A stretch of 63,222 bases of DNA, filler included, from Stramenopiles sp. TOSAG23-6 (Eukaryota), in assembly GCA_900128565.1 (NCBI GenBank). It is 2 parts of 2 records of this genome, joined end to end, with 100 filler letters (N's around TTAATTAATTAA, not from the genome) between each part and the next. Parts side by side here need not be neighbours in the genome. Positions count along the whole stretch, not along the records: positions 1 to 31,740 come from LT635960.1; 1 more part is not named here. The stretch is one strand, 5' to 3'. Each line of letters begins with the position of its first letter. The first letter of the stretch is position 1. A program made the translations under genes and the position numbers. Of the stretch, positions 1,926 through 57,711 are shown one piece after another. Below the pieces are notes generated by a model that searched no databases, was not told where the DNA came from, and saw only the letters and a list, made by a program, of their open reading frames with translations.

Positions 1926-2380
1926 GTCGAATCCTATACCGGCCACCTTTTTTTGGTACGAAATTTTGTACCTAATACGCTGATCTGCAGAATATCGACC
2001 AAAAAAAAAAGTTCTTTATATTTTGTGCAATTTCTGACAATATTTCTAGCATTTGTCATTTAAAATATTCAGTCAACAGGAGTCATTATCATGCTAAACA
2101 ATATAAAATGAAATGCAAAAGTGCCTTTAAAGACATTCTATTCCAATTGGTCATGTGCGCTAGTATCACATATCCCAATGAGTAATATCATGTAGTTTCA
2201 CAAAGTTGAATACACTATTTTATATGAAATAAAAGATATAGAGACATCCTTTCTTTTTTATCTATCAAATCTTAAAGCAAGTGAAAATTAAATTTCAATA
2301 AAGGAAACGAGATTTTTTGTAAATTTTTGCTTAGGTACGGATTTTCGTACAAAACCAAAAGTGGCCGTATATGGATGGAC
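1926..2380. mobile_element. Putative MITE-like element bounded by ~50-bp imperfect inverted repeats containing the introner core motif
   Basis: 1926-1975 reads GTCGAATCCTATACCGGCCACCTTTTTTTGGTACGAAATTTTGTACCTAA. The reverse complement of 2331-2380 reads GTCCATCCATATACGGCCACTTTTGGTTTTGTACGAAAATCCGTACCTAA. The interior is AT-rich and non-coding. Confidence 0.5.
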
Positions 2381-2472: not shown

Positions 2473-3904
2473 ATGCAAAGAAGCAATAGTGATCCTACAT
2501 CATTCATTGATGATAAAAGTTCTTTCTGGGTAGAGTATACAAAGCGTAGAGTATCGTTGAATAAAGCGGATAAAGTTTCAAAAAAGAAAAGACAGACACG
2601 TGATGAAAAGCTTGCGTTACAAGTACGAGATATGCGCCGATGGCGTTATAAGACAACACACCAAGATACAAAGCTTGTAGATATACATGATGAATCAATG
2701 CAACCTACAGCAGATGAAAAATTAGTATGGACCTCAATTGAAACAATAAATGATCCAAGAGGATCTTCTATTCCAGAAGTAGAGATGTATCTTGAAAGAC
2801 AAAATCGTCGCTGTACAGATATCGCCTTGTGTTTAAAGTGTCTTCGTGATAAGTTGCTAGTTGCACAGTATGGATCAGTTGGTTCACAGAAATTTCCTAG
2901 CAGTATAAGAGTTCTAAATATATATGGTTCCCAGACCTGTGAATATGACTGGTCTGATCCATGTAATCCTGATGAAAAACCAAAAAGAGAATTAACAGAA
3001 ATTCGTTGGTGTTCCATGTGGATGCCAAATTGCCTCAATAGATTAAGAAATCTTCATATGATTAGCATAAAAAACACTACATTAAATACAATTCCTTCTT
3101 CTTGGATTGCTCTATCGCATGTTCTTGAAAGTCTTTGCTTGTGTAATAATAATATTTCCTATATTTCAACTGCTTTATCACAATGTACAAGACTCACTAC
3201 TTTATTATTAAATGGAAACAAAATTGAAAAATTGCCGCCTCTAAATAAATTACAGACGCTTCAAAAATTATGTTTAGGTCAAAATAAGCTTCGTCGGTTC
3301 CCAAGTGGTGTGAGTTCCCTTTTATATCTACATCAATTGATACTTACCAGTAATAGGATTGGTGGTATACCAAGTTCTATAAGTAATTTACAACAATTAC
3401 GAACTTTAGCAATTGGTGATAATTTATTAGAAACCTTACCAGATGCCATAGGGCAGCTTAAACATTTGACACATCTCAGTATCGATAGAAACAAGATACA
3501 AATATTACCCGAGTCAATGGGGAAACTTATTCATTTACGTTTGTTGGATGCTTCCTTTAATCAATTGAGTAATATTCATACATCTATTGATAAAAATACA
3601 GCACTATATGACATGTATGTTTTATTTTTTTTTCAATTTTTAATTTATGTTTTTCGTACGAAATTTTGTACCTAACGAATTAAAAAAATATATTTTTTCA
3701 CAATACATCAACTTGGCCATGAATTTTCTCATGGAACTGCCACGTGTAGTTTTACAAATGACACAATTAACAAAACTTAGTTTAGAAGGAAATCCTTTGA
3801 TGGAGCCAGGAGAGGGAAATGATTGGTTGATACCGCATAATACGCATTATTCAAAAAGTATAATGGCAGCTATAAAAATATCAAGAGATATTATGTTTAC
3901 TTAA
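2473..3904 (+). CDS. Leucine-rich repeat protein (typical 23-aa LRRs); exons 2473-3614 and 3709-3904
   Basis: LxxLxLxxNxLxxLP repeats. Joining ORF 2449..3675 to ORF 3647..3904 gives an intact repeat NTALYDINLAMNFLMELPRVVLQ. Confidence 0.85.
3615..3708 (+). mobile_element. Introner-family intron, GT-AT (94 nt), AT direct repeat
   Basis: GAC AT|GTATGTTTT...GTACGAAATTTTGTACCTAAC...TTTTCACAATACAT|C AAC. No AG occurs inside; removal restores the LRR register. Confidence 0.85.
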
Positions 3905-4419: not shown

Positions 4420-6384
4420 CTACAAGTATGTATCATGTCTCGCATACATGGCAGATAAAGCAATTCCAAAACCTTGTAACACAGAAAGTGGATGTATTGT
4501 AAAAAAATATTAAAAAAAAAAAATTGTTAGGTGAAAAATTGTAGCACAAAAAGTGAATGTATTGTACAAAAATATTTTTTTAAAAAGTGTTAGGTACAAA
4601 ATTGTATACAAAAAAAATAATTCATGATGAAAACGTACATATGTAACATCACATGAGAAAACATTTTCTTGTAATTTCCCTGATAACAACCATTCCTTCT
4701 TTTCACCATCTTTAGAATCATACAGAATGAAATTTTTGACACTGCTCAATTTTGCTCTTCCTTTAAAATCCAAAGTATGACATTGACGTCGATTATCCCA
4801 TTCTGGTTCTTTATTAGGTAGAGATACTACTCTATTTTGTGAAAAAATATGTTTTTGTAGTAAAAAAAATGTTAGGTACAAAAATTTTAGAATTTGTACA
4901 AACAAAAAAAATAAATTCAAAATTGAAATTTTTAAATTTGAATGAAAACAAACCTGTTTTTTACCATTGAACGTCCACGACTTTCTTTCTCAAAAGTCTT
5001 TTGTAAACCTTCATCACTATTTGAAGGTCGAAATACAACAGGTTGTCCACCAGTATTAACCATGTATTGTTAAACAATATTTTTTTTCAATAAAAAATGA
5101 ATTTTCAACAAGAAAAAAAAAATTTTGAAATGAAATTGAAATAAATGATGAAAACATATAAATACTAAAAAAAAAAAAAAATGATAAATAAATGATAAAA
5201 ACGTACGTTGGTACTAAAGTATCCATAATTCGTGGATGTTTACTAGACACCGTATATTTTATAGATGCTAGTTCTTTTCGAGATTCCATTCGGCCTCGTG
5301 CTTTGCGAGGGGCGAGACCATTATCATATAATAAAAATTCAGTTTTTGTTAAATTGCCACGAACTTTACCAATAAATGACGGATCTTCACGTCCACCCTG
5401 AGGAGTCATTGAAATCATAACATTAACACCTTTTGAAAGAAATTTACTTCGATCTTTTGCAAACATGACAAACTTATTGCCTTTTTTTCGGTCGAGATAT
5501 AATGCATAAATATACTTATTATTGTCATCTAAACCACGTTTCAAAATGCACTTGACTGTCCCGAGTTCTCGTGGTACCGGATTTGTTAAAAAATTACGTA
5601 ATTGATGAGCTGTATCATAATTATATTTAGGCATGCGAGTTGCGAATGATTTGATGGTACGTATACCTGTTGGTTTTGGAGCAATTTCAACAAAACTTTT
5701 GGCTGTTTTCAAATTAGCAGAGTCATCGGAAGTAGCGTCAGAATCGCTAGTAGATGTGTCACTGCTGTCACTGCTTTCAGAGTCTGAAGAAGAACTAGAT
5801 ACATAGTTTCCAATCCCTTGCATGTCAACATTATTGTCTTGAGCTTCATTGAGTTTCTTTCGACGAAAAGATCGAGCGCAAGCATTTGCTACAGCTGTAG
5901 ATTGCTTTCTTTTCGTTGGAGTCACGCCTGAAGACTTTTCATTAAATAACCAATCTAAATCGTCACCAGTGAGATTATCCGGATTCGCAGCATTTACTTC
6001 AACGGCTGGAGGTACTGAAGCAAATGCATTATCAAACATATCATTGACTTCATTTGAATAATTTATAGATTTTGGCTGGTTAGCGGATACGTATCCTGGA
6101 CGGTTTCCAGAATAATTTTGACCCATTTGTGAGTGTCCATTCACTCCATATCCATTATTGTGGTATGGAGAGTGTTTTCCATCTGTATGAGGAGGAAGTT
6201 TTTGACCAGGCATGTAACGTTGTGGTTGTGCCTGTTGAAAATTACGGTTCTGGCGTAATCCAAAATTATTTTGAGAGGGAGGTGCAGAGGGACCCCCCAA
6301 CACATTACCAAAGGGGCTATTATCCTCATTTTGACCTTCCCAAGATAAATTGTCCCAAAAGGGATCATTTTGAAAATCTCCCAT
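4420..6384 (-). CDS. Tubby-like protein; exons 6384-5207, 5061-4954, 4831-4639, 4491-4420
   Basis: Tubby motifs after splicing: FIGKVRGNLTKTEFLLYDNG, RKELASIKY, NKEPEWDNRRQCHTLDFKGRAKLSSVKNF, FSCDVTYPLSVLQGFGIALS. Confidence 0.88.
4492..4638 (-). mobile_element. Introner-family intron, GT-AT (147 nt), with an internally duplicated 3' end
   Basis: TAT|GTACGTTTTCATC...TTTTGTACCTAAC...ACAATACAT|CCA restores the Tubby YPLS motif. The first downstream AG is out of frame. Confidence 0.85.
4832..4953 (-). mobile_element. Introner-family intron, GT-AG (122 nt), AG direct repeat
   Basis: AAC AG|GTTTGTTTTCATT...TTTTGTACCTAAC...TTTTCACAAAATAG|A GTA, giving NRVVSLPNKEP. Confidence 0.88.
5062..5206 (-). 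mobile_element. Introner-family intron, GT-AT (145 nt), divergent; flanks AC/AT
   Basis: CCA AC|GTACGTTTTTATC...TTTAACAATACAT|G GTT. The internal AG leads to a stop codon; there is no clear GTACCTAAC. Confidence 0.75.
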
Positions 6385-16017: not shown

Positions 16018-19000
16018 CTATAGTGGCAACTCTACTTTCGGTAAACAAAGTTTGGGTTTTTGCAAATCTTCAAAATGCTTACGAAAACATCGAATTGCTA
16101 ATTCGGCTGGAATGTTCAATTGTGATGCCAAACCTTTTATAATTTCATTTGAAGGCATCGTGGACGCCAAATTTGTCTTACTAACAATGAATTCAGGGCT
16201 TAGGTTTCGTGCACGCCGACGATGATATTTTGACTCTTTATAATATTTAGAAATATTTTCAGATTTGTTTTTTGATGTAAAACTTTTTCCATCAAGAGAA
16301 GAGTGAGTGCTGCGCGAAGGAGCTGACTTTATTCTTGTATTTCTTTTTAGCATTCGATGACTATGTGATGCAACTTTCTTTGCAATTTTTTCTAAATCTC
16401 TTGTGGATTTTTCTTGAAGAGAAATTGTTTGTGGCAATTTTCTATTTGGAACATCTAGTGTTGCTTCAGTCAAAAAAGGGTGTGATAAAAGTTCCTCTGC
16501 AGAAGGTCTCTCTTTCGGGTTTTTCTTTAAACATTTTGCACAAAAATCAACTAATTCAGGAGAGTATTTTTCGCTATCTAATTGTGGAACTTTTTTCTCC
16601 TTTATGATACTAGCAAGCTCCCAAAATCCACCTGATGCTGCTTCCAGAGGAAACTTCGCCTGCGCAAGAGTAAACACAGTTAACCCTAGAGACCAAATGT
16701 CAGCATCATAAGAATACGGTTTTCCTGCAAGTCGTTCGGGTGACATATATATTAATGTCCCCGTAAAAGTTACAGCATTTGAAAAATTCGTTTCATCAAA
16801 TTCTCTGGATATACCAAAATCTGCAATCTTAACTGCGCCTTTACTATTAATCAAAAGATTTGCTGGTTTTATATCCCGATGAATCTGACGAAGAGAATGA
16901 ATAAACTGAAGACCTTTGATTACACGTAAAGTGACGTTTGCTAATATTGGTTCGGAACAAGGTTTACCGGCACTTACAAAATCTTGGAGTGTTCCAGCAT
17001 CCATGTATTCCAAGACGATGGACATCGATTGGTTCTCAGCACTTGTAAAAGCACCATGAAATGTTACAATTTGTGGACATGGTGGTAAAGATGACCAGTC
17101 ACCTAAATCTATACTGTTTGCAAATAGAGAGCCTAGTTCACGTAATATTTGTTTCTTCTTTTCATAAGAGCTCATTCTTACTTTCTTAATAGCTACAATA
17201 TGCAGAGTAGGAACATGAACAGCCTTATAAACAACTCCACCAGCTCCACGACCTAACTCTTTGAGAACAATAAATTCAGCACGCATGCTTCTTTCATCTT
17301 TGCTATACTTGGAGTTTCTTTCATCTTGACTATATTTTTGACGTAGTAATGTTTTATCTCTTTGCTGAAAGTGGTTGAATTTTTGCTTCATTGTAACTTC
17401 ATTTTGATCTGTTTTCATTAGTTGGTCATGTTGAGACATTTGAGTATATTTTTTATTTTTCTGGTATTCTTCATTTTTCTTTACTGTTGAATTAGGGTTA
17501 TTTGTAATAGATATTCCTTGTTGGGTATCGTTTCTTTTCATTGAAGTGTTCATCAATAAATCATTATTTAATTCATTTTTTATACAAGTATTTAAACCAT
17601 TTTCATTATTTTTATGATTTTGTGAATTCAAGTAAATTTCATCATGTATAGAATTTGAAATATCTGGACAATACGGTCGACTTTTAGAATGAAAAAATGC
17701 CTCAGATGATGTCCAAACGTCATCTTCATGTATTGTATTAGAATCTATATTGGAATTTTGTTTACTATTGCTTATTAAATTCTTATATGATTTTTTTGGA
17801 TTTGGTCTCAGTGCTGTCGCTGCAACAGCAGCAACAGCAGCCGATGCGCTTTGAGAAGATTCATTTTTTTGATGTTCTAAATACTTGACAAAATCTGTTT
17901 CTAGATTACTATGAGATTTTTGTGTCTTTTCTTCAGACTCATACATTTTATGTATACTTGAGTTATTATCATACATGTCACCTATATTATTAATCTCTTC
18001 AGTACATTTACCAACTGTAGTTGTACATGCTCTATTTAACTTTGAATACCTAATATCACACTTGTTTAGTTTTTGATTGGATTTCTCATGAGAATTATGA
18101 GAAGTGTTAATCCCAATGGAGAAGTCTTCTGAACTATCAACATGTAAATTAGTATTTTGTTGTACACCATTCTTAGAAATACCATCAGATGTTTTTACAT
18201 TGGTAATATTTTTGTTTTGAGTGGAATTTATAAAATCGTTTTTTATAATGTTTTCTGAGAGTTTGACAAGTTGTTGAGGATTAGAAGTTAGACTGGTGCC
18301 ATGTAACACATTTGATTCAGAAATTGAATCCGTACTACATTTCGTACCAGAAGTCATACGAGATTTACACATTCTATTATTGGTGCCTGGTGTTCTAGCT
18401 ATACCAGATGGATTGATTTTCCATCCTTTCGCTAAAAATGTTCCACTTTCTGATAAATCTATTGATTTTCGATTACCCGCTCGTAGATTAACCCTAGCTA
18501 CGTCTTCATTAATTTTTGCAATATCAAGAGCAAAATTTCGTATTGGAAGTTTTGGTTTTTTTCCTACAGTGTGAAATTGTTTTCTTCGTATATTTTGATT
18601 CATTTTTGATTTTGTCGCATTTTCAACGCTATTCATAAGAGTATGCGAAGAAGAATGACAAGTAAATTCATCAATATCATTTGGTATGAAATTCGCTACT
18701 TTATCATTTTTGATATCAGAATGTCTCATCTCTTCATTTTTTTCTTTATTTACATTATTTTGGATTTCATTACTTTTTCTTAAAGGTGAAATTCCTGCGT
18801 CTATATTTTTTTCTTGATCACTTTGGAGTGACACAAATTCATTATAGTTAAGGTTCATGTCAATATTTTTTGAACCTTTTATATCTTTTTTATATAAGGT
18901 GCTATTTATATTTGTACTACTTTCAGTATTTAAAAATTGATATTTTGATTTCGATGATCTCTTTCCAGAACTAAGACTTGGTGAGGTTGAACGTGTAGGT

Positions 19001-20288
19001 GTCATTGTCAAAATATTTGCGTCTCTGGGCAGTGGGGTAGTATTTGGCAAATGCGACTTGGAAAATTCCGTACCTAACGAATTTCGTATTTGCTGAGTGT
19101 TGCTCCTCTTACTTTTCATCACTTTACAGTCTTTTCGGTTATCTGCAGTAGAGTTGACATTATTTTGTTGAATATCTTCAATTACATTAGTTGAAATATC
19201 ACATGGCTTATTTTCTTTCCTTCTTGGAGTTTGTGTATTAATTGTTAATGTATTGTGAAAAAATATTTTTTTAGTAAAAATATTCGTTAGCTACAGAATT
19301 TACTACAAAAAAAAATTGAAAATCATTATGAAAACGTACATGAAGTATGCTGACTCCTTCTCTGTGCTAGCGACATCTTCCCCTTGGAAGCTTGTGAAGT
19401 GGATGTCATAGCATATCTAGCTGCTGCAGCTACACGAGATCTTTTATTATAATTCTGTGAAAGTGTTGATGAAGAATTTGTAGATTGAGACTGTGGTAAC
19501 CCTAACCCTAATTGTTTCACTTGGCTCTTTTGGCTCTGACCTCTATCATCAATACTTTCTTTATCAACTTTATTACTACTGTTCTCCAAAAGCTTATTTT
19601 GATGCCTATTATTTTCTGAATTACTTGATGTTACATGAATAATTGCATCAGCAACAGTAGTTGCTGTCAAGTTAATTCCTACAGATGAAGAGTTACCACT
19701 CAATTTGATACCTGCTTCATCTTTCTCACTTTGAAGAATTCGTAGACGTACAACTTCACGTAATAATTTCCGCCGATGTAGACGAACATCGATTTCAAGT
19801 AAGCTGAGGTCGTCATCACTATTCATGAGTAATAACGCATTGCCATTAATTTGAAGTTGTCTAAATTTTTCTGAATAACGAGATAAATCTATCGAATGGA
19901 GCCACTGTATCACATCTTCGACACTCCACTGTTGAATATTTGGACCTTGTACATTTCCCTTATATTCCACAGATAAAGATACAGGTTGTTCTTCAACAGC
20001 TAGTGGTGAAATATCATATTTCTCGTTTGTTTGGAAATAGCCATCAACTGTGGAAGCTTGTGTACCTAGCGTAGCTTGGAGAGACATATCTAAAGACTCA
20101 ACTAAATCACTTTTATCCTTTTTCAGACCTCTGGCAGCTAAGAGTAACCGCAATTCTTTGATTTCATCAGGAGTAAGTGAAGCCAACTGCAGCTCACGCA
20201 TCAATTCTGTTTTCTCATTTTCCGAGGTTCCACTATCAGTATCAACCTCAAAACCCAAAGTATCTGAAGAATCCAACAAAGGATTCAT
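16018..20288 (-). CDS. SAM-domain + MAP2K (STE7-like) protein kinase; exons 20288-19340 and 19247-16018
   Basis: SAM: WSVEDVIQWLHSIDLSRYSEKFRQLQINGNALL. Kinase: LGRGAGGVVYK, HRDIKPANLL, DFG, TFTGTLIYMSPERL. The two parts join in frame through the family intron. Confidence 0.8.
19248..19339 (-). mobile_element. Introner-family intron, GT-AT (92 nt), AT direct repeat
   Basis: TCA T|GTACGTTTTCAT...TTCTGTAGCTAAC...TTTTCACAATACAT|TA ACA. The internal AGs give stop codons. Confidence 0.8.
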
Positions 20289-20695
20289 TTTTTAAAAAGC
20301 TATTTTTGGTGTTTGTTACTGCTGCAATCTAACATTCAAATCGTATCTTCAACACACGTACCCAGCTACTTTGCAGTAGGATGAAATTACTCGTTTAGAA
20401 TATGGAATCCCCTTCTCTTCACTTCTAAACAGTTCTGATTTGAAAAATATTTCAAATATTTGAATGAATAAAAATCGAGCTAGAGTTTCGAATCGAAAGA
20501 CATGATGACGACGACGATTTCCTTTTTTTTTCATTTTGAATTTTCGTGAAGAACCGAACCCTAACCCTAACAAAAGATCTTGAATTTGTAACGGTAATTA
20601 ATTAGTAGCAAAAAATTAGCTAATGACCTTGATAAGTTTCAAAGAAGCTTGTGTAAGATTTTAGGAAAAGTATAATTGCCACATTCGCTTTCAGA

Positions 20696-21517: not shown

Positions 21518-21786
21518 TTTTTTGTTCAATAAATATTGTAAAAAATACAATTTTTTTTAGTTTTACAACATGCTCTTCGTTTTTGTGAGTTATATACAGA
21601 GTTACAGATTATGTTAGGGTTAGGGTTTGCTTTTTTCAAGATGACTCTAGCGCTAGTCAGAATAATGTTCTTTTTCACAATATAAATTGGAGATTCTTCA
21701 CTTCACTTCCTTGAACTTGAATAAATAAACCTGTTGTATAAAGTTGATACAAAGAGAGGACGCGGTCTTTGATATTACAGTAATCA

Positions 21787-23161
21787 ATGGTGTATCCTTT
21801 ATATGGGCGTGAACTTTCATCCGTTGTAATTGAACTCGGAAGTGCGTATCTAAAATGTGGTTTCTCTGGAGATTCTGCTCCAAGTCATATAATTCCATGT
21901 CCGGAAATGCACCAACTATTATTGCAGTGGCCTCCACCTTCACCCAGTGAATGGCAAACATATATCAGTGATTTATTATCAAATGTATTTTTTACCAAGT
22001 TACTAGCTAAACCGACAAAAAGAAGCGTTATAATTTGTGAAACATATTTTACCCCAACAATTGTACAAAAAGCTGTTGCTTTTGCGTTATTTGATCATCT
22101 CCGGGTACCAAAAGTTCGATTTATAAAGACAAGTTTGGCTGCACTCTACACGACTGGTAATTTGACTGGAATTGTAATAGACTGTGGTTATTCTGAAAGT
22201 CGCATTGTTGCAGTTTATTCAGGTAAGTTAATACCCGGTGCTCAACGTGTTGTAAAGACTGGTACTTTGGCCGTTCATGAGAAACTAAAAACTGCTTTAT
22301 TTCCAAATGATTCCATTGAATTAGCATCTACTGAGTGTATTTCTCACTCAACTACTAATATGTCATTTTCTGGGATATTGGAAGATATAGCACCCCGATG
22401 TTGTTATGTATCACCCGAAGAAGACAAAAATCAAAATGAAGATTCTGAAGATGGGCCTGATATAAAATACAGTTTACCTATGAATTTTTCTACTTTAGTC
22501 AAAAATGATATTAAAAGTGAAAATAATAGAATTAATATTGAAACAAATAATGCCACTTGTGATAATAGTTGTAGTATTCATATTCCGTATAAAGTGTATA
22601 CAAAAGTCACTGATACATTATTTTATAGTAATGAAAACAACGAATACTCTTTCGCTGAAACATTTTTAGATATTTTGTACGTTTTTATCATTAATTTCAA
22701 TTTTGTTTCATACGAAATTTTGTACCTAACGAAATTTTTTTTCAAAAAAAAAAAAATATTTTTCACAATACTTACGTGCCTGTCCAAACGACCTCCGAAG
22801 AGTTATTGTACAAAATGTTGTAGTTATTGGTGGGACTGCATCATATGATGGTTTTAATGAGAGATTAAAGAATTCAATATTAAACTATGCAAAAAAGTTG
22901 GAAGATTTAGGAGAAAAAACATATAAAAATAGTTTTTATTTTTCATCTTTGAAAGTTATGAAAAATTACCTTAAAATAACACCTCAGATATTTTCACCTA
23001 ATATTACAGCATGGGTTGGTTGTTCATTAATGGGAATTAATGTATCAGTACCAGAATCAAAAATTGATGTATATGATGAATTTTGTGATGATGAATCAAA
23101 TTTTATGACAATTTCAGACTTTTATTCACAAGGAATTCAAGATGAATTTCAAATTGAGTAG
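21787..23161 (+). CDS. ACTR10: Actin-related protein (Arp10/Arp11 dynactin-like); exons 21787-22676 and 22774-23161
   Basis: VVIELGSAYLKCGFSGDSAP, GIVIDCGYSESR; after splicing, FLDILRACPNDLRRVIVQNVVVIGGTAS and AWVGCSL. Confidence 0.8.
22677..22773 (+). mobile_element. Introner-family intron, GT-TT (97 nt), TT direct repeat
   Basis: ATT TT|GTACGTTTTTATC...TTTTGTACCTAAC...TTTTCACAATACTT|A CGT GCC TGT CCA. No AG occurs inside. Confidence 0.82.
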
Positions 23162-23337
23162 TAGAATTTTAGTTATTTTTTATATTTTATCATATAAAAA
23201 AAGAAGTAGAAATATCCAATCGAAATTCATATGAAAATTTTAATCCCTCTACATTTAATGATTTAAACCTAAATATAACCATATAACCCTAATCTACTAT
23301 TCTATCTGAAAAAATATAAACTCCATACTACTTTGCT

Positions 23338-24480
23338 CTAACTAGCCTTTTTTAAATTTTTATTATATTTTCTTTTAGGTTGTACTTTTTGTGCTTCTTT
23401 TGCTTCATGTTTTGTAAAAACTTTTCCAATTGCCTTTACAAAACTAGCATAAACATACTGAGCATTAAACTGCATATCATGCCAATAATTTACAGCAATT
23501 GTTGCTTCATTTTTAGACTGTGCAACACGGTGATACCACATTGCAGGTAAATATAAAATTTCTCCAGCCATTAATCGACATTCTAGAGCCATAACTGATC
23601 CTTGACTTGACATGGGAAATTTCTTTTCTTGTGCAGCATGACATTGTTTTTTTGGACGATTTGGATAATGTAAGTAATCAGGGTGAGGATCAACTGAACA
23701 CCATGGTACTTTTTCACCATTCTCTAAAACTATTTTCCAACATAACTCTGATTTGTCATAGTGATACCTAGCAGGTGAATATTTCTTTTCATATAAAAAT
23801 GGTGCAGCAGCAGGTGGTAATAATATAAAATCCTTATATCCTTTAATTACACAATATAAATTTTCATAATGATCTGCATGTACTGAAGTTGTAGCACGAC
23901 AATCTCCTACCCAAAGATTTACTGCATCAGGTGGTGTACCAAATGCTTTTGTTGCCCAAGATATATTATCAGGAACATCGCTAGATATTTCAGGAAATTC
24001 AGTGCGCAGAGAGTCATTTTGATATGATAAATATGGTATATTTGAGCAATTTTGTTTAGACTCTAGTAAATTTGCAAAATCTGTAAAATTCATTTCTCTT
24101 TCTTCTGGTTTTATAAATACGTATTCGTTCTCAACATTTGTTTCTATATTATGATTCAAAGAGCTACTATCAGATTCACTTTCAACGGCATATTTAGAAG
24201 TGGGAACATGGAGAACTGCATCACCAAGACCATTGGGTGTGACATTTACATTCACGTTTCTATTGCCAGTACTTGTTTTTAAATATTCCAACGACCACCG
24301 ATTGTATGCGTCCCAACCTGACACAACTCCTTGAATAATGACTGGAGTACTGGTTGCAACAAATCTCATAAATTCTAAAGCAGTTGGTTCGCGAATTCTC
24401 TGGATTTGACGAGGAGTCCAGAGAGCTCCGGTTTCAGAAGCAAGCTCACACAGTGCATGTCGTATATCTTCATTAAGCAT
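23338..24480 (-). CDS. JMJD7: JmjC-domain hydroxylase, JMJD7-like
   Basis: VNVTPNGLGDAV, PDAVNLWVGD, TSVHADHYENLYCV, LYLPAMWYHRV, IAVNYWHDM. Confidence 0.88.
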   Translation of the reverse strand: MLNEDIRHALCELASETGALWTPRQIQRIREPTALEFMRFVATSTPVIIQGVVSGWDAYNRWSLEYLKTSTGNRNVNVNVTPNGLGDAVLHVPTSKYAVESESDSSSLNHNIETNVENEYVFIKPEEREMNFTDFANLLESKQNCSNIPYLSYQNDSLRTEFPEISSDVPDNISWATKAFGTPPDAVNLWVGDCRATTSVHADHYENLYCVIKGYKDFILLPPAAAPFLYEKKYSPARYHYDKSELCWKIVLENGEKVPWCSVDPHPDYLHYPNRPKKQCHAAQEKKFPMSSQGSVMALECRLMAGEILYLPAMWYHRVAQSKNEATIAVNYWHDMQFNAQYVYASFVKAIGKVFTKHEAKEAQKVQPKRKYNKNLKKAS

Positions 24481-24851
24481 TTCAGTGTGAACGATATACT
24501 AGTATACAAAGATGAAGCTACCGTAGTCTTTTTGTGTTGTTTGGTAGTAATGGTCAAAATTGATTGACAAAAAACAAAAAAAAGAGTCAGCAATGATTTT
24601 GATTCAATAAGGCGATTAAGATCCTGAGGTACCTGTAGTCAATTCAACCTTGATTCGAATTATCTATTTTAATTCAATTGTGTGAATAACTGAAACAAAA
24701 CTATCGAAACAGAGTATATACTATATAGCTGTATAAGCAAGATAGAAAATATTCAGTGTCTTTCTACCATTTACGAAGCTTCTTTGACTTATTTTCAGAC
24801 CCAACACTTTGGCGTGTTTCAACTAATCTTATTTCTTTCAAATTGTACAAA

Positions 24852-26843: not shown

Positions 26844-29800
26844 TTAAATATATTCGAAATATGCAGTTGGTATAACACCGATTTCATCAGTTCCATCAGT
26901 CGTCATTACCTGACTCCAACCATCTTCAAATTCTTCCAAAACTTTAATCATAGAATTTTGTTTCACATGTAATTGTTCATCATCATCATCCTCCTCTTGA
27001 GGTTCAAAATCAAATGACATTTTAGCATCCCTTGCAGTTTTAATTAATTCATCTAAATCAGTTTCTGAAGTAATATCAGGATTGACTGATTCATTTGAAG
27101 TAGAATTACCGACAGACTCACTTATTGAAGGTCTTTGGTTGGAAACTTCCATAGATGTCTTTTCTATATCAACGACTTTTGTAGTGCTATCTACAGTTTT
27201 GTTATTGGTATCGGATGAAACAGCTACAGCAGCAGCTTCAGCAGCAGCCTGGATCAAAGCACGCTCATACAAAATTTCAGCATCTTCGTCGGAATCTTGA
27301 TTGACAGTATCATTTTTAGAAAGATTTTGTTTTACATCTTCGTCGGAATCTTCATTGTCAGTATCATTTTTAGAAAGATCTTGTTTTACATCTTCGTTGT
27401 CAACATTGGATACTTCTTCCTTCACATCTGGTATAATCTTTTTTTCAATAGCTTTACTTTCTGGTACCTCGATTACATCAGCATTCGCTAAAGAATTTGC
27501 TGTATACAATCCACAACCATATAATGATGCAGTTATTTTAGGTTTGACTAGTTTTGCTGTTGGTGTTTTTTCAGTATCTTTAATCTTAGAATCATGTATA
27601 GGTGTCTTATCATTCGTATCTGGAGATGTACGCAAGATTGGAGCAGTAGTGAGAGAAGGTGGTCTTTTATTAGGACTAAGCCCTAACCCTCCAACACGAG
27701 ATTTTACTCTTGGAGCATCAATAGAACCTCGTCTTTTCTGTACACGTAAACGAACAGCAACAGGAGCAGAGTTATCTTCTTTAGCTTCGTCTTTTTCTGC
27801 CACTACTGGAAGACTCATTGTATCACATACTGTTTCATTTGCTTGATATGACATATTTTGAGATTTTTTACGAAATTGTTCAATTCTTCTTGTTCTTGAT
27901 GCAATCTTTTCTTTAGCTTCATGAAGATTGTCTGGATCAATTAACTTCAAAGCCTCTGCAACAATTGCAACAGGAATTGAAATTGACGCATTCGAATCTC
28001 TTGCAAGTCGTTTTCGATCAGTATCACGTGAACCTGCTTCAATGTATGCCCATGTTCCATGTATTTTGTAGAAATATTTCAAAAAAAAAACCTAAAATTT
28101 GTTAGGTACAAAATGTTTTGAAAAAAATAAATTCGAAATTGAAAAAAAGAATGAAAACATACATCTACACGAGATGTTTCTTCAAATCGAGCAGCTTCAA
28201 CGGCAGCATTAACACTTGCGGCAGGTTTCATTATAGCATCAATATCACCTGCACCAGCTGAAACACGCACACGAGTACATTCAGATAATAGTGCTGCTGC
28301 TGCTTGTTGAGCCTTTTCTGACGATTGACATGACTTATCAAACAACAAACCACCTGCAGTTCGGAGTAAAGGTTCAAAATATTGACTCCATGTTTCTTCT
28401 TCTTCAACATCTTCATCATTCGAAATTTGAGATNTTTTATTTTCATATGAATTCCTGGCCATCGACAATAAAGCAGATATAATTGTAAAACCACTTGAAG
28501 CATATGTTTCATTACTGATTGTTTCAAGTAATACCATTGCACACATTTTTGCAAGAATAGGAGTTTTTGTGAAATATTCTTGACATACTACATATGCGAT
28601 ACGTTCTAGAAATAATTGAGATGACTTTGTAGAATACTCGGAAACAGCCTCAATTAAATCGGGATGAGCATTTACACGTTTCAATGCATCTAAAAGATGT
28701 TTAATAACTTCAGTAACTTCTCTAGAATCTCTCACAACGAGTGATGTATCTTTCTGATATCGCGAACACACTTGAGAAATCATTGCAGCATCAGCTTCTG
28801 CCTTTACCTTTTGCATATATAACCAAGGTAATAGTAGTAAAAGTGGTCTAAGAACGCGTTCTCCACCAGATGAGTCGAAAAAATCAACAACAACGCCTCC
28901 CCCAGTAAGACGGATAACAACAGATCTTGCAATTGCTGCAAGTTTTGCATCTTTATGGTGTACAACATGTGTTAATAATGTCAATAATCCAGTAAATGGA
29001 GGATCCCAAGCTAAAACACCTGGTGGTGGTGAAAGATTTGAGTCAACTTTTGATAACACAGAAGCAATTGGTGACATTTCTGATGTAACAGTATTCACAA
29101 TACGAAGTCCAGAATATAATAATTCAGGAAGATTTGATTTTAGCATTGCCAAGCCAGTCCACATTAATTGAAAACAAGTTTCAGATGTTGCTGTACATTT
29201 AGGAGAAATTGATGCCTTGGAAGTACTAGAAATAAACTTCACAAGTTCTTCAGATAATACAGCTAAAGTTTCAGCCATTTCAGCAGTTTGTGCAATCAAC
29301 TCGGCCGTTTTCGGTGATGTTGCTTTAACAGATGCACTTGATGAAAGACTCAACATTCGATCTGCTAAATGTCTACATAATGTCAATGCATCATTATGAT
29401 TCATTGTTAATCCTTTTCCTAATTTCTGCAATTGATCACAATGAAGTAAAGTTCGATAAATCCAATGCGCACGTGTAGATAAATTAGAATCCCTACAAGC
29501 AAGAGCATATTCTAGAGTTTCTTTTGTAAGTGATGCAATTAAATCATGACCCTTACCTGTCGCAAAATCAACACTTGTAATAAAAGCTAAAATGAAATTA
29601 CCTAACGAATTCGTGCATTTTGATTCGTACTCCCAATTAATTGTAAATGGTCGACCAGATAAGGATAAAGACAACATTGCAACGAGAGGATTCACTTGTC
29701 CCACTAAAGCATTGTATAATTCTTCAGAATTTTCAGATGTATTTTTTGCAAAACTTGGCAATGATAATAAAACATTACGTAAAAGACTCGGAATATGAGA

Positions 29801-31685: not shown

Positions 31686-31740
31686 GCTGAAATTTTGTAT
31701 GAGCGTGCTTTGATCCAGGCTGCTGCTGAAGCTGCTGCTG
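31686..31740 (+). other. Inverted chimeric copy of 27227-27281 at the contig end (likely amplification/assembly artefact)
   Basis: 55-nt exact reverse complement of 27227-27281. Confidence 0.85.
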
Positions 31741-31840
31741 NNNNNNNNNNNNNNNNNNNNNNNNNNNNNNNNNNNNNNNNNNNNTTAATTAATTAANNNN
31801 NNNNNNNNNNNNNNNNNNNNNNNNNNNNNNNNNNNNNNNN
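31741..31840. other. Artificial contig linker (Ns with TTAATTAATTAA)
   Basis: N-run with a central stop-in-all-frames spacer at 31785-31796. Confidence 0.95.
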
Positions 31841-31907
31841 TTTCGTACGAAATTTTGTACCTAACAAATTTTAGTTTTTTTTTTTGAAATATTTTTTCAT
31901 AATCTAT
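31841..31907 (+). mobile_element. 3' half of another introner-family intron, followed by a probable terminal exon (ISAFEEKGFVYN*, to 31947)
   Basis: TTTCGTACGAAATTTTGTACCTAAC...ATATTTTTTCATAATCTAT. The 5' part is lost in the gap, so the exact acceptor is uncertain. Confidence 0.6.
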
Positions 31908-39820: not shown

Positions 39821-41643
39821 ATGAGCATGTCTTCTCGCCAGCGCCACTCTAAGGTACGATATTGTTTTGCTGACACAAAGCATTCTGATGTGTATACTGG
39901 CCTTCCTGCAACTCGTGGGGTAGGTGATCATCAAATGATGAAAGCCAACTCTAAATTTTTTGCTTATGGATTTGATGCACCAGGTGGGCCCCTCCTGGTG
40001 TGGCCGCATGAAAAAAAAGGCAAATTTTCTCGTCAACAGATATTCCTTGGCCATGGTCATTCCGATTCAATTATGGATATCGACTTTTCTCCTTTCAATG
40101 ATAACTTATTGGCCACAGGTTCTAGAGATGGTACCATCAAACTCTGGCAACTTCCGGATAGTGGAACATCTGAAAAAAACATCAAACCCATAACTTCTCT
40201 TGATCAACATTCTAAACGTGTTTTATTTACTAAGTTTCACCCAACCGCCGAGAATGTTTTTGCAACAGCAGGTTCAACACCTTCAAATGAGTTGTTCATT
40301 TGGGACATTTCGCGTGGTGAGCCAACCCTAACATTTGACTTAGAGTTACACTCTTCACAAATAGAAGATTTGAAGTGGAACGAAAATGGGTCTTTACTTT
40401 GTACCTCTGATAAGTCTTGTATAGTACGCATGTTCGATCCCCGTGCCCTTGCTGTGGGTAGTGAACCAGTCGTTTCTTTCAAGCCACATCAAGGACATCG
40501 TCCTATCAAGGTCTCTTTCATTCCAAAATTTGATCGCTTCATAACTTGTGGGTTTACTAAGTCTAGTAAACGTGAGATGAAATTCTGGGATCCACGAAAT
40601 CTTGATAAACCTATTCAAAAAATTGCTATGGGACAGTCACCAGCTGTTTTGTATCCTTTCTTTGATCAAGGTACAAATATTCTGTACGTATGTGGTAAAG
40701 GTGAAAACGCCGTGCATCTCTATGAGGTAGTAAGTGGAACTGAAAATATTGTTCACTTGTCCAATGTGAATGGAATCGAATCATCGAAAGGATGGTGTAT
40801 ATATGTTTTCATCATGAATTTCAATTTTTGTTTTCGTACCAAATTTTGTACCTAACAAATTTCATTTTGTTTTTTTCACAATACATGATGCCGAAACGAT
40901 CTTGTGATGTCATGAAACATGAAGTAGCGAGATGTTTAAAACTAACACGTAATGGTGTTGAATCTATGCGCTTCAGAATTCCTCGTAAATCTCGTGATTT
41001 CCAGGAAGATCTCTTCCCTGATGCACCTTTCCCATTAAATCCTATGTCAGCTGATGATTATTTTTCTGGTAAAAATAAGGATCAAGAACTTAGTTCTTTA
41101 GATCCTAAACAGCGTACGGATGCATCAGGTGGATCAGTCTTTGTTGCAGCTAAAACATCTACAGAATTATCTGTCGAGTTGGCTGCTGCAAATGCAAAGA
41201 TAGTCAAATTGGAAAAAATGAAACTTGAACTTCTTGCTAAATTGAAAGCAAAAGGAATTACACCTTTAAAAATTACTCCTCCGCCAGCTCCTGTGATTAA
41301 AAAAACTGTTGTTGTTCCGCCAGCTCCTGTGTTTAAAAAAACTGTTGTTGAAAAAGTTGTCGCTCCAGTTGTTGTGAAGACAGCAGCAGCTACATCACCT
41401 CCAGTAGTTAAAAAGATTTCACCAGCAAAAGAAGTAAAACCTGTCAAAAAAATGCAGGTTGTCAAGAAGGCAGCATCGCCGAAGAAGGAAGTAAAACAAG
41501 AGAAAAAAATTAAAAAAAAGACTGTCATGAAAAAAGCAGACTATATGAAAGAAATATCGAATATGTGTAAAGATCTTGACCGAAGCGATGTTAAAAAAAT
41601 ACACGTCCTGGTGAAAGAGATCTGGGAAGCTGATGGTAACTAA
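39821..41643 (+). CDS. Coronin; exons 39821-40800 and 40887-41643
   Basis: SKVRYCF, GHSDSIMDIDFSPFNDNLLATGSRDG, LYPFFDQGTNILYVCGKGE; after splicing, KGWCMMPKR..HEVARCLKL..RIPRKSRDFQEDLFP; coiled-coil tail. Confidence 0.92.
40801..40886 (+). mobile_element. Introner-family intron, AT-AT (or AT-AC if shifted 2 nt), 86 nt
   Basis: TGT AT|ATATGTTTTCATC...TTTTGTACCTAAC...TTTTCACAATACAT|G ATG CCG AAA CGA. No AG occurs inside. Confidence 0.85.
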
Positions 41644-44830: not shown

Positions 44831-47800
44831 TTAATCTTTTTCTTTCTCCCCGGCTTTGTCTATTGTCAATAAAATAGCTGTGCCATTATCTATCCATTTC
44901 GAATGTTTATCCATCGTGTTCATTGTTGCAATAAATTGGAATTCCGAGACTCTCTCATTCGATAAGTATACAGGACATTCAAAAATATCATCATTGTTCC
45001 GAAGATATCCAGCTTCGATTCTTTTCCACTTGGGATTAATACGAATTGGGCGTATAAGCATAATTGGTAATCTGAAAAACTTTGTGTTTGTAATTGAATC
45101 GTCCAAACATCCTCCATATTGAGAATTGCCTATACTTTCTATATCACTACTGGTTGGCTTCTCCCAGCTAGCGCCAATTAGATACATATCATGTGCATAA
45201 CTGCCTCCCATATCTGGATGTTCATTAATGTTTTCAGTGTTAGAATACACAGTAACTTTAGTTTCTAATGTAAATGCTTCAATAGGGTGATTTTGCTCTT
45301 TAGCGGCGGATTGTAATATTGCAGATAAATATTTTTTCGGTGCAAATAATCCACCGAGCCAAATAGAGACTGGGCGCTCCATTTCACTCACCCATACATT
45401 CAATTGATCAACTCTAGCAAGTACATTATCCCACCAGTCAGTTAGTGATTGCTTCCATTTCCATGATAATTGAATCCACTGGTATGGTACTTTTTTAGAA
45501 AATATAGTTTTTATAATTTCAACGAGTTCATCTGTCATATTAATCTTATTATCAAGCGCAAGAGCTATTTCATCCAACGATTTCTTGAGTTTTCCCAAGA
45601 AAATGTTCATCTGCAAGCACTCCTGAATGGCGAATCTCGCATAAGGTGCATTCACATCATCCATAAGAACTGGCTCAGCTGCAATGTTTACATCATTCAT
45701 GTTGAATTCTCGTGGCATCTTCGCAATTAGAACATCAATCTTCTCTTTGACATATTTCTCTCGATCCTTCAACAACTGAAGACTCTTTGATATTTTCTCT
45801 TCTACCGGTGGTTTACGTTTTGGTGCACCATCATTGTCGGCTACATTATTAGAATTGCCGTCACTGGTGGATGATAATGCTCCGGCTGTCTGGGCTTCAT
45901 TCTGATCAAACTGTAATTTTTCGATTAGCTTTGAATGGGGTTGCATTATAATTTCACTTCCAAAAATATGCATCCCGTTTTTACAAATATATCCAAGTTC
46001 ATCCACGAGAAGATTTCGCCCTGAATTTTCGTGAATGCCAAATGAACTAGAATTTGTGACTGAAGGTAAATTATCAGTAATGTGCTCTAAATAATCTTCA
46101 TATTCTGCGCTAGCGTTGTCTAATGATGGGAAGTCTGGTAAAATATCACATTGCTCAAATAGTTCAGCGACAAACATTTTATCTAAATAATTTCGTGTAA
46201 TACGGAGATCCCAAAAATTACTCATATGACCTCCATACACCAACTCAGCAAAAATGTATCTCAGTTCTTCCCATGGAATTGAAATCTGTTTATCGAGATA
46301 TCGTTCCATGATATTGATACATGTACCAAGGTCTCGTTTATTGAATCGATAATTGTTACTCCAGCCAACAGACCCATATCGCTTTCTACCAACCAAAATT
46401 GCATGAAGAGAACATAGCGCAAAACTCAGTGCTTTGAACTCGGTAGGCTTCTCAGCCTCAAGAATTCTTTCTGGTGGAATTACCGACCAAGCTGATCTCA
46501 TTATATGTGGTAACTCATTAGGTTCGTCATTGCAAACTTGTACACATTCTCTAAGTAAACTCTCAGGCAAAATTCGTCCAATTTCAATAACACTTGCTGG
46601 TGTTGTATTCGTATTAGACTCATTTGTTGATATAGAGAGCAAAACCCGGAAGTCTTCGTGGGCTTGACTTGTAACTGATTCTAATATCTCTTCGAGGCGG
46701 AGAAAAGTTTCCGGGACCAAATGTAAATTTTGTAGCAATATCCATCCACCCTCTTTGCCAAGCCTTCGAATCTCTGTTTCCATAAAATCTTGATTATTCC
46801 CGCCGAGAGCAATAACCACAAATTTTCCATTGGATGGTGTAAAATCAAGTTGTGATGACATTGCTTCCACCCATGCAGTGGGGTCTTGACCTGGTACTAA
46901 CACAAATAAAATTGGATTACACGATCTACTCTTTTCGTAAAGTTTCTTCATTGAAAATGAAGTATGTTTTACATATTCTGGGCCTAGATTAGATTCGATA
47001 CAAGCTAGTATCATGTGTTTTGCGCGATCAGGACGAAGTGTTTGGATAAGCAAAATACGATCGAAATAGTCCAAATTTTCATACGGCTCTCCACCGGGGA
47101 TCACTTCATTTTCTGGTTCGGCACTGAAATACCAATCAAACCATTCTTCACTGTCTGCTTGCATGTGTGATGATATGTACCTATACTCTGAGAACTCGTT
47201 TAATGCGCATACCTTGGCCCATGCTTCAGTTGATAACCAACCGCTAATTTGACCCATTTCACTTGGATTGGGATTAGATGGCGAATGAAGTAAATGCTCC
47301 AATTTCTTTGGGTGAATCTTTCTACTTATAGCCATAACTTTGCAGAAAAAGAGGAGTGCAAGTGTAGTATGGTCGTGATTATATATTGATCGTTTAACAT
47401 CATTAAAAACAAAACTCGTTACCTTGTCTTGCATAACTATATTCTGTTCTTCTATTTCATCATCATCAAGCATTCCAGGTGTCGCATTTGGCATAAATAC
47501 ATTTCGAACGTTCTGTGGTGTTGGCAAACGTGCGGCTCGTAATAAATCAACACCCCAAATATAGCGTAATGTTGACTCAAGTTCACTACCGGCTACACGT
47601 TTTTTCTTGTCGAGTGACCTCGAGCCTCCACTATTATTTCCACTGGAAGATTTATCTAATGCTCGTGCAAATGTAATTACAAAAGAGTTCAATGAAAACA
47701 CATAATTAGGATTTATCTTATGAAGATCGCTCAGTAGCATAAAGATATTAGCACCACGCTCGGCGACTGGTCGGTACTTCTCTATAATTTCTTCCAGTTG

Positions 47801-50800
47801 AGTGGCAGTTGATTCAACAATGGAAAGCTTTTGTTTTGCACTTTTTGCTGCAATTTTTGCACGTTCAAGAATATCAACAATTTCTTGGTCCTGGCAGACA
47901 TCAACCTCCGCGTCGGCTAGTTTCTGTAATATTAGTGATTGAAGTCCTGCTAGCTGAATCTTTGATGTTGAACGTTGAATTGTATTGTTGGCAAACCTCT
48001 CTGCAATATCTGGTCTTTGTTTCCGAATTACGACGGCTAATAATTGTTCTTCCAAACACTCTTGATTTACTGTAAAATCAACGAAAGTACAAGCTCCAAG
48101 TATACTATCAGAAAATTTAGGATTGCTTAAACGAGTTGCCATATATAGTCGAAATGATCCGTGCATCTCAAATTCCGATCCACCCAATACTACATAATTT
48201 GTATTGCCTCTCTCATGTATCCTTTGTTTAATCAAGTTCATCAAGATTGGTGGGAATTCTTCTTTCACGCCCTCCAAGAGAACAATTTGACCCTCCTCGA
48301 GGGCACCACTTAATATTTGCACGAATGCTTTCATCCCTATACGTAGATACAAGATATTACTCGATGGTTGTTCATCACCTGTACTTGCATTTGTGTTTTT
48401 CGTTGATTCGTACCGAGATTTAATCCAATGTACAGCTTGCAACTGAGGATCTAAAAGAAGTGGCCAGCGTTTGCTTTTTCTAGCGATAATTGCATTTTCA
48501 ATTGAGGATCGATCGTTCGACAATGTTTCAGAAATAAGTTTGTCTTCATATTCATCACTAAGTAAAGCATACGCAGGATTGACAACCGTGTTCAAAGATA
48601 TGTTAATCTGAGAGTTTCTCAAAAATGGCAGCCATGTTTGAGATAATAAAGTCCAGCGATGTTTAGTATCAAAAGGACCTACAAATGAAACAAAAGCAGA
48701 AGCTAAAGTGACATCACCAACCAAGTAATCACCATAGTTCTTAATCTCTTTTTGTTTTTGAAGCCATATGTCTTCTTCATCAAAAAGTGATCGGGCGAGT
48801 CTTCGAGCTAGCTTAAGTTTTGTCCGCCCAACAGTGAGCTTCATCACAGCGTCATCTTTTTCCTCTTCGGCAGACTCAAAATCTTTATTAAGTTGATTCA
48901 GAACTAATTGCATATCTTTAAGTTCTACTGTTCGATTATTAAGATTTTTATTTGCCTCCGCGAGATTTTCTGTTGCTTTTGCCAATGCTTCCCGCAATGG
49001 TGCCGTCGAAATGTAGACGTCATAATATGCTACAATGTTAATTACCCATGAAACTAATATCCCTGCAGCAATATTTCGCGACGAGATAAGATCAACATCA
49101 AAATACTCATTTTCGATATATTGCCGAACTTCTTTCATGTTAATGGCAGGGATTTTCATGTCATGTAAAAGTTCTTGATATCCCTTGAGTTTTTCTATAA
49201 ACACATTAATATTAGGCAACAAGGTTTTTATACACATTTTCCATGAACGATCGCGAATACGCCCACTTGAATCCACCCCATCAGTGATGTGAACTCCTGC
49301 AAAGAGCACCATAATCGCAGCAAAAACATCATCAACTCCCTTAGGAGGATCTTTTAATGTTTTACAAACACCCAGATCTCTCTTATCAATAGTTTCTGCA
49401 GCAATCTGAGAACGTACAAGTGCTGGCTCTCCTTTTTTAAGCTCTCCTTCGCACATTTCCCTCTTTGCGTGTGCGTCTTTTTGTACATTGGTACATATTT
49501 CTTGCTCCTGGCTGCATTTAAGACTTGCAAAGTCAACAAGAGACTTTTGTTCCGATACTTTAACTGCCAAATCTTCAGCTTCCTTTTTCTTTTCTTCGGC
49601 AGCTTCTTCCAAGAACTCCATATTATCTTCGATCTCGCCGACATCATTCTTTGTCCTTCGAAGTTTATCAATGCCAATTTTCAAACGCTCAGTATCCGTT
49701 TCTACAGCGGCTGACTTCGTTTTTAAACCATGACGTAAACGACGAAGCATATCAATATAATCTAGTGGTGCTATGTATACATGTCGTTGTGTATTCTCAA
49801 AATAAGTTTCCACCATTTCGGTGCTGCTACTATATACTAGTGGGATAAATTCTTCAACAACTTTAGCAGCTTTAACTTTATCCTCCCCAAATTCTGCAAT
49901 ATAGTTTGGCTCATCATCTTTTTTATCATCGCCCTCTTCACCACCTTCAACTTGATCGTCGATAGATTTTTCCTCCGTAGGTGCAGCCAGAAACATTTGA
50001 GATATTTCTTGTAAAGTTGATACAGGCCATGATCTAAACCAATCTATTGTTGGGCATAAAAGTAGGCTCGGAAATCGTTTTGCTCGGGGCGAGAAATCAG
50101 GTGTAGTCGGAGACATGCACAAGATAACTTTGACATTTTTCTTTACTTTACCGATGAACCAATCCCATGACATTTCGTTGTCTATTGTAAGAACACGAAG
50201 TTCTGTTTTAGCTTTTGCCATTACATCTGTAATTATTGCATCTTTTTCATCTTGGGGATATAAATCTTGTATTTCACAAGTGCTTATTAAATCAGATATA
50301 ATCAATAGGATATCATCATTTCGTAAATATTCCTCGGTCAATAAAAGTACTTGCTGTTTATCAGGGGCACCAGCAAGGACAAACATTTCTTTGAGGCGTT
50401 CCTTAAGCCCTGTTGCATTTTCAGAGTCTAATGCATGTATGGGCATATTATTCATATGACAAGCAATTCGAGCAAGGGATTGTTTTCCCGTACAACCATG
50501 ACCAATGAGACACACGTGACCTTGTCGCTGCAAAAGAATTCGTGTTATACGCGTGATATGTGACATGGCATCATTAAATAAAATCAAATCAATCTTTGGT
50601 TCATGTTTGTTGTGCTTTTCTACAGCTACAGATAGTTGCTCTCGAAGACTTTCCCAAGTAAGTACCGAATCATACACTTGTTCGTCAAGACTCTCCGCAT
50701 AATGAAAGTAGCACAATGGCTCTGTTTGTGCCTGATTAAAAAATGGCTCGAACGCCATCTGAGGAAAAGATTTCTTCGCAGTTTTGAGAACATAACTTTT

Positions 50801-57520: not shown

Positions 57521-57711
57521 ATTGTTTTATGATGATGGCGAAATCTCCAAGGAATTAGATCTTAAAGGGATATATCATATATATAAAACTTCAACGGACG
57601 GAAGGTGTAACTGTAAAAGATGACACACTTCAAACTTTGGTCAAAAGCTACTAGCTACTATATATAAGATACTATAGGTATGCTTATGGAAGCAAAATTA
57701 TTGTGAAAACA

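Follow-up and report, generated by a model that had tools for sequence, protein, structure and literature searches.

How is an intron that ends in TT, rather than AG, removed from its transcript, and by which spliceosome? The question is raised by a gene at positions 21787-23161 (plus strand) of a 63,222-nt stretch of DNA from Stramenopiles sp. TOSAG23-6, the whole of which is referred to here as the window. The reading frame of this gene is interrupted by an AT-rich insert. Few signals in eukaryotic gene expression are as conserved as the 3′ AG, and it has long been asked how U2AF35, Prp8 and the two outermost bases of the intron enforce it. We conclude that the insert is probably a copy of a non-autonomous introner family, which would be spliced by a U2 spliceosome with a co-evolved U1 and would have a non-AG 3′ end.

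The Arp10-like gene and its intron

Both exons of the gene are open and conserved, which argues against a disrupted gene that is left unspliced, and each matches Pfam Actin. The Arp10/Arp11 label is putative and follows an apparent resemblance; the assignment tested is that to Pfam Actin. The insert starts with GTACGTTTT, ends with ACAATACTT and has TT directly upstream, and an identical mRNA is obtained from a GT-TT intron (22677-22773) and from a TT-AC intron (22675-22771); the initial annotation gave both readings. Six joins were compared with homolog P0001, and only the 97-nt excision gave a gap-free alignment (raw score 649, versus 638 for an AT-AC intron at 22672-22771 and 603 for a join to the AG at 22800). 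A profile built from 94 of 150 homologs (330-520 aa long) placed 22677-22773 at the top of 245 in-frame join variants, with 323.3 bits. Splicing to the AG at 22799-22800, which had been said to delete RACPNDLRR, does remove these nine residues, and at 291.8 bits costs 31.5 bits; a C[PD]x[DE]xR motif is present in 34 of the 94 profile homologs. These comparisons establish an intron of 97 nt at this place in the gene. The profile settles its length but not its exact position, with other 97-nt joins lying within 1-2 bits; one of these, an AT-AC join of the same length (22670-22766) that the initial annotation overlooked, has 321.9 bits and so comes within 1.4 bits of GT-TT.

Three marine metatranscriptome runs contain a small share (0.07-0.10) of the interval 21600-24600, which is not evidence on the junction. 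Pairing of the intron ends, as in euglenid introns, was considered and rejected, since the Arp10-like intron folds no better than shuffled sequences (z -0.84) and no covariation between intron ends was seen among the family copies. The bases that precede the branch box (e.g., 22706-22725) form an imperfect palindrome, GTACGAAATTTYGTAC, which could be a short hairpin or a protein-binding site of the element.

Table 1. Parts of the Arp10-like gene, and other copies of the intron family in the window.
Feature	Positions	Strand	Basis
Exon 1, actin-related (Arp10-like) gene	21787..22676	+	ORF; Pfam Actin; homologs
TT closing exon 1, putative upstream copy of 2-base target-site duplication	22675..22676	+	Family statistics
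97-nt family intron, GT...TT, phase 2	22677..22773	+	Homology across joins
Donor GTACGTTTT; positions +1 to +8 complement the variant U1 arm of this genome	22677..22685	+	
Conserved family core, with branch box GTACCTAAC at its end; predicted branch A 22729	22706..22730	+	
3′ terminal motif, conserved: a T run followed by CACAATAC, at a fixed 2 bases upstream of intron end	22755..22771	+	Position table
TT, putative 3′ splice dinucleotide and downstream duplication copy	22772..22773	+	
Exon 2, actin-related gene, with RACPNDLRR	22774..23161	+	Pfam Actin; homolog alignment
LRR gene copy, AT|GT...AT	3615..3708	+	
Tubby intron 1, AC|GT...AT, flank and end unlike	5062..5206	-	
Tubby intron 2, AG|GT...AG (canonical)	4832..4953	-	
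Tubby intron 3, AT|GT...AT, 3′ half duplicated; frame kept by distal end	4492..4638	-	
Copy AT|GT...AT linking ORF 19326-20291 with kinase ORF 16018-19290	19248..19339	-	
Copy AT|GT...AT	28059..28162	-	
3′ part of copy, end AT; 5′ part missing in N gap	31841..31907	+	
Coronin copy with A at +1, AT|AT...AT	40801..40886	+	Homolog alignment

Family copies in the window

The window contains eight more family copies besides the Arp10-like intron, one of them truncated by an N gap (Table 1). For the coronin gene, the listed intron is the only one of five joins tried that aligns gap-free with P0002 and P0004. The Tubby copy described earlier as AG/AG is intron 2, which does read AG|GT...AG and is in frame. 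In Tubby intron 3 the 3′ half is duplicated in tandem over 65 nt, so that branch box and AT end each occur twice; of the two ends, only that at 4492 is in frame. In Tubby intron 1 another donor-like block lies at 5159 and the branch box is unclear, and the frame is kept.

Several other features of the window are recorded here. A lone family core, with neither donor nor 3′ motif, lies between genes at 1950-1975 (plus strand). A 4,231-codon open frame at 44831-57526 (minus strand) is dynein heavy chain-like, with an N-terminal region that by eye is kelch-like; it has no family intron, while nearby short genes have up to three. Positions 31741-31840 are an N-flanked TTAATTAATTAA linker between two contigs, and contig C10 corresponds to 1-31740 only. 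Positions 27227-27281 and 31686-31740, the latter at the contig end, form a perfect inverted repeat of 55 nt, which is possibly an assembly artefact.

Size and composition of the family

The 16-nt core AAATTTTGTACCTAAC has 3,272 + 3,159 = 6,431 exact matches in the 21.1 Mb of genome searched, as against 0 + 1 for a reversed control. Half of the validated copies described below (100 of 200) have the exact core, so the family would be of the order of ten thousand members, an estimate that is inflated by duplicated contigs.

Introns were predicted in 964 kb of partly overlapping DNA by a caller that was trained on the donor, branch box and 3′ motif, and not on the two terminal bases. It returned 245 predictions (with one window copy excluded), of which 200 beat both frame-shifted controls and are considered validated, 41 favoured a shift and 4 were tied. 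The caller is restricted to this family; unrelated GT-AG introns were sought in 60 loci, with results too noisy for a count.

The median length of the family introns is 100 nt. Among the validated copies, the donors are GT (179), AT (12), GC (5), GA (3) and TT (1), and the terminal dinucleotides are AT (160), GT (12), TT (10), AG (9), AC (3), CT (2), GA (2), AA (1) and TG (1). Thus, U is found at -1 of the intron end in 184 of the 200, and a G follows the end directly in 103. The branch box GTACCTAAC is present in 161 copies, and the distance from the branch A to the intron end has a median of 40 nt (5-95% range 33-50 nt, and 44 nt in the Arp10-like copy). In the position table, AY is conserved just before the terminal two bases. 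Four of the 200 copies have AT upstream and an AG end (L086:8452, L099:6992, L115:8597 and similar), which may be a reversion to the canonical acceptor in older copies.

Terminal dinucleotides and insertion sites

The initial annotation proposed that the terminal dinucleotide tracks the insertion site, and this is borne out as a tendency rather than a rule. Flank and end are equal in 147 of the 200 copies, with AT/AT accounting for 122, and unequal in 53. Where the end is not AT, it equals the upstream exon dinucleotide in 25 of 40 copies, compared to a mean of 2.4 and a maximum of 10 in 10,000 permutations, and identity between flank and end is raised at -1 and -2 alone. The 17 copies with TT upstream end in TT (9), AT (6) or GT (2). 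Near-identical copies in unrelated genes (scores 0.91-0.92) have their own flank/end pairs, namely CT/CT, TT/TT and AT/AT, and similar copy pairs with different flanks score 0.86-0.94. Copies in which flank and end match resemble the family more closely than those in which they do not (0.69 versus 0.575; p=2e-7), although mis-calls could contribute to this difference, and one mismatched copy looks young (TC/AT, 0.94 to its neighbour). A locus-specific match, together with the divergence of mismatched copies, is what would be predicted for a 2-base target-site duplication that decays with age.

The family has two features of introners, in that many alike introns occur in unrelated genes and the duplication is locus-specific. 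Perfect terminal inverted repeats of 3-4 nt are found in 117 of the 200 copies and are never longer, so that repeats of at least 6 nt, which are optional for introners, are absent. The same match of flank and end could also arise if the 3′ end were picked by its likeness to the exon end, in which case it would be a splicing requirement and not an insertion footprint. Its confinement to precisely the two positions that flank the cuts would suit such a process, as would the lack of convincing inverted repeats or a transposase partner. We nevertheless consider templating by the exon very unlikely, because the 53 unmatched copies are in frame and are more diverged, as footprint decay predicts; in addition, we know of no mechanism for comparing a 3′ end with an exon end.

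snRNAs and spliceosomal proteins

The U1 candidate (G000:C1146:349-508) lies between U2 and U4, matches Rfam U1 over its full length (E 3e-13) and has an Sm-like site; its 54.1 bits are below the Rfam cut-off of 69.5. Its arm, AAACGUACAUG, differs from the Rfam consensus, AUACUUACCUG, by three changes, which make it an exact complement of cAT|GTACGTTT. The variant U1 forms a mean of 9.5 pairs (of 11) with the 200 donors, versus 7.1 for the consensus arm, with a sharp peak at the unshifted position; of the 4,455 triple variants that are possible, it is the best for donor pairing. A canonical U1 arm was not found in the genome search, and the variant is the sole U1 found. Relatives with the same arm were also sought, but the 14 metagenome matches gave 0 Rfam hits and none is a U1, and they were dismissed as chance matches.

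The motifs of the other major snRNAs are canonical (U2 GUAGUA, U5 loop 1, U6 ACAGAGA and the U4 motifs). The CTAAC core of the branch box is predicted to pair with U2 GUAGUA, with the bases upstream requiring a bulge or mismatch. U5, U2, U1 and U4 are clustered on contig C1146, with the same matches on C6122, and U6 is on C3740. The cluster is arranged head to tail on one strand (L051:9-645, from G000:C1146; U5 9-126, U2 129-325, U1 349-508, U4 514-645). Its spacers of 2, 23 and 5 nt leave no space for separate promoters, so it looks like a polycistronic snRNA unit; the literature search returned no paper matching this U5-U2-U1-U4 arrangement. U11, U12 and U6atac were not found in the incomplete assembly in which U1, U2, U4, U5 and U6 were.

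Prp8, Slu7 and a U2AF65-like protein were found, as was one zf-U1 match. Prp8 is identical to the human protein over about residues 1516-1600 (around the alpha-finger), and has 18 private substitutions in 892 residues relative to 42 non-redundant homologs, whose own range is 2-30. We see in its sequence no sign of special change, and hence no protein change that would explain AG independence. U2AF35 was not found in the incomplete assembly by two patterns or among 16 zf-CCCH matches; this is uninformative, because the Prp18, SF1 and U1-70K domains were likewise not found there. With respect to affiliation, Hondaea fermentalgiana (38%) is the only named organism among the coronin matches, the named Prp8 matches are a mixture of oomycetes, green algae, plants and animals (83-85%), and an 18S fragment is present in the genome.

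Splice register and the choice of 3′ end

If both cuts were made two bases earlier (TT-AC in the Arp10-like gene and NT...AY generally), the mRNA would be identical here and for each of the 147 matched copies, and the intron would close on the conserved AY. Among the 53 mismatched copies, however, this shifted reading encounters register-specific stops at three loci (L061, a MatE gene; L071, an amino-acid transporter; and L110), and for L061 and L071 the domains continue across the junction (in L071, from Aa_trans Pfam position 141 to 146). The GT register has one register-specific stop, apparently at a mis-called acceptor, and one further locus stops in all registers. Where position -2 has changed, it is more often a third codon position (11/20 versus 32/122, p=0.016), so the -2 bases would appear to be exonic. 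A shift would also turn the Tubby AG copy from GT-AG to AG-AT. Finally, if the canonical register holds, the G of GT is paired with C8 of U1 and the U at exon -1 with A9, one of the altered bases, which points to a cut at GT. We regard the shifted register as highly improbable and prefer the cut at GT.

With the cut at GT, it might still be supposed that ordinary GT-AG splicing to a nearby AG takes place, or that the gene is disrupted and unspliced. An AG is the called end in 9 of the 200 copies; of the 191 non-AG copies, 21 have an AG that keeps the frame no more than 9 nt to either side of the called end, and in a further 50 one lies at 12-30 nt, so single copies can be ambiguous. Against this, only 63 of the 191 would keep the frame by using the first AG past the branch, which is the chance level, and an earlier AG is skipped in 51. 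Homology is unbroken across the non-AG junctions in the Arp10-like, coronin, Rad4 (BHD_3 44|45) and transporter genes, and the conserved residues lost on joining to the AG of the Arp10-like gene have been described above. We find recourse to a nearby AG, or a disrupted gene, extremely unlikely.

The view that the intron obeys neither U2 nor U12 rules is correct for the acceptor, which breaks the U2 rule of a 3′ YAG; the donor (GT in 179 of 200, with U1 pairing) is of the U2 type, and the branch site appears to be so as well. The U12 donor consensus is RTATCCTT, and the U12 branch-to-acceptor distance is 10-20 nt. An AT-AC intron at 22670-22766, spliced by a minor-type or AT-AC-tolerant spliceosome, would make AT-AC introns of the AT/AT copies as well. 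It has the same length as the GT-TT intron at nearly the same score, 122 of the 200 copies slide to an AT...AY reading, and the family branch box resembles the U12 branch site. Its donor, ATATTTTG, however, is without the CC of the U12 donor, and in all 200 copies the best near-donor match to the consensus is 4-6 of 8. The distance from branch to end would be 37 nt, which like the family median is long for U12, and the cut would fall within the fixed 3′ motif of the family. The failure to find U11, U12 and U6atac in the incomplete assembly, and the pairing of U1 in the GT register, also argue against it. The earlier claim that the GT-TT copy speaks against a U12 intron therefore stands on the family and snRNA evidence, but not on this copy, where the AT-AC join of equal length fits. 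We attach very little probability to an AT-AC intron; most likely, it is the major spliceosome that acts here, with its first cut at GT and tolerance of a 3′ end other than AG. A fixed ruler from the branch was rejected as the means of choosing that end, since the distance spans 33-50 nt, and the 3′ motif is the better candidate.

Transposon source

An autonomous partner for the family was sought among five DDE_Tnp_4 matches, of which two distinct loci were read (C2432 and C4153); neither has the family's ends in the stretch examined, and both were set aside as transposase partners. The element on C2432 (L148, with the same coordinates on C2433, C2439 and C2440) is PIF/Harbinger-like and has two convergent ORFs, one of 508 aa (DDE_Tnp_4/Plant_tran) and one of 350 aa. 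The family core motif occurs in its inter-ORF spacer (about L148:1060-1100, minus strand), and its apparent left end is unlike the family ends. According to the accessible part of their description, ISL2EU elements (PHIS superfamily) have a 2-bp AT target-site duplication and insert at A|AT|T (PMC4482050). The 2-bp AT duplication and the DDE_Tnp_4 transposases of this genome resemble that system, but the A|AT|T context is found in 0 of the 122 AT/AT family copies.

Proposed mechanism and significance

In the mechanism that we propose, the introner family supplies thousands of introns in this protist. The element, GTAYG...ATAC, would bring its own donor, branch box and 3′ motif, and its insertion would double two target bases, which are mostly AT and are TT in the Arp10-like gene. 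U1 and U6 would take the GT donor and U2 the CTAAC box, and the U2 spliceosome would cut before GT and after the downstream duplicate, which would restore the original mRNA. U1 would have co-evolved with the family donor, including the U at exon -1. The terminal motif of the element, approximately 40 nt beyond the branch A, would set the 3′ end two bases past AY, with U preferred at -1 and AG not needed. As copies age, flank and end would diverge, the end mostly towards AT. The sequences show the place and length of the intron, its family, the locus-specific 2-base match and the complementarity of U1, and from these we infer splicing in vivo, the cut register, transposition and how the 3′ end is recognized.

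The first and last intron bases contact each other, and a loosening of this contact would be in keeping with the 12 of 200 copies that have A at +1. Counterpoints to the mechanism are that flank and end are unequal in 53 of 200 copies, including the young-looking one, and that 45 of 245 calls failed or tied in the frame test; the inverted repeats are also short and the intron ends do not covary, neither an autonomous partner nor an empty site was found, and the U1 candidate scores below the Rfam cut-off. We are evenly divided on a broader claim, which is that a transposon invasion rewrote the spliceosome code: one introner family with an AT-biased 2-base duplication grown dominant among the introns, a U1 matched to the element end and to the duplicated exon base, and AG dispensed with at the second step, leaving AT, GT, TT, CT and AG all usable as 3′ ends, with the Prp8 core unchanged and possibly without U2AF35.

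The TT, GT and AT ends, apparently working with canonical U2, U5 and U6 motifs and an unchanged Prp8 alpha-finger, amount to a natural experiment that tests which parts of splicing can be dispensed with. The sequences point to a spliceosome re-tuned by transposon invasion. Standard gene finders will mis-model the lineage of this protist. The U1 change is direct sequence evidence for co-evolution of spliceosome and introns, which the accessible text of the relevant study otherwise describes only for Entamoeba and Mastigamoeba (10.1101/2022.06.08.495308), and which here appears to be linked to a transposon footprint.

Comparison with known systems

Introners and non-AG introns as such are already known, and what is new is a U1 arm altered in three bases to match the donor of the family. 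The literature search (few subscription journals, and without introner supplement tables) returned no genome-wide GT-AT protist system and no such U1 arm. The comparisons that follow refer to the accessible parts of the papers cited. One source gives the expected 3′ sites as AG and AC only (PMC12130899), and the non-canonical introns of Fritillaria, Amoebophrya and euglenids have been reviewed together (PMC11282704).

In Fritillaria borealis and F. pellucida, most introns are without a 3′ AG and end in AT more often than in any other dinucleotide (34% and 44%, respectively); the 3′ triplet is repeated just upstream of the donor, the minor-spliceosome snRNAs have been lost and the U2 spliceosome is used (PMC13326754). 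The AT-dominated ends and the repetition of the end upstream of the donor are thus shared with the present family. However, the Fritillaria donors are mainly AG (AG/AC and AG/AT), versus GT in 179 of 200 here, and the U1 5′ end is kept and U2AF duplicated, whereas in this protist the U1 arm is changed and U2AF35 was not found in the incomplete assembly (PMC13326754). Fritillaria is also a tunicate, and the organism studied here is a protist with one dominant family of approximately 100 nt.

Introners with their own 5′ site co-opt a 3′ site from the target-site duplication, for example in family 5 of Chrysochromulina sp. (10.1101/2022.06.06.494994). That family resembles ours in its near-identical introns in unrelated genes, locus-specific duplication, lack of clear inverted repeats and restored mRNA. 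It differs in that the duplication is 4 bp and gives an apparently normal splice site, in place of 2 bp giving AT, TT, GT, CT or AG, and a U1 change is not reported in the accessible text (10.1101/2022.06.06.494994). Amoebophrya is likewise a marine protist in which the majority of introns are repeated and non-canonical, with duplications, but inverted repeats and variable borders are found in those introns, and U1 is apparently absent (PMC11282704), whereas the present family keeps strictly to its donor and branch box and the genome has an adapted U1.

With regard to U1, the accessible text of the comparative study gives a standard U1 for Micromonas pusilla and a co-evolved U1 for Entamoeba and Mastigamoeba, with co-evolution absent in 69 Saccharomycotina, five Mamiellales and Thecamonas (10.1101/2022.06.08.495308). 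As in Entamoeba and Mastigamoeba, the arm described here has changed so as to be fully complementary to an atypical donor, reaching to +7. The Entamoeba change lies opposite intron positions, whereas one of the three changes in this protist pairs with exon -1, the duplicated target base, and occurs alongside loss of the 3′ AG (10.1101/2022.06.08.495308).
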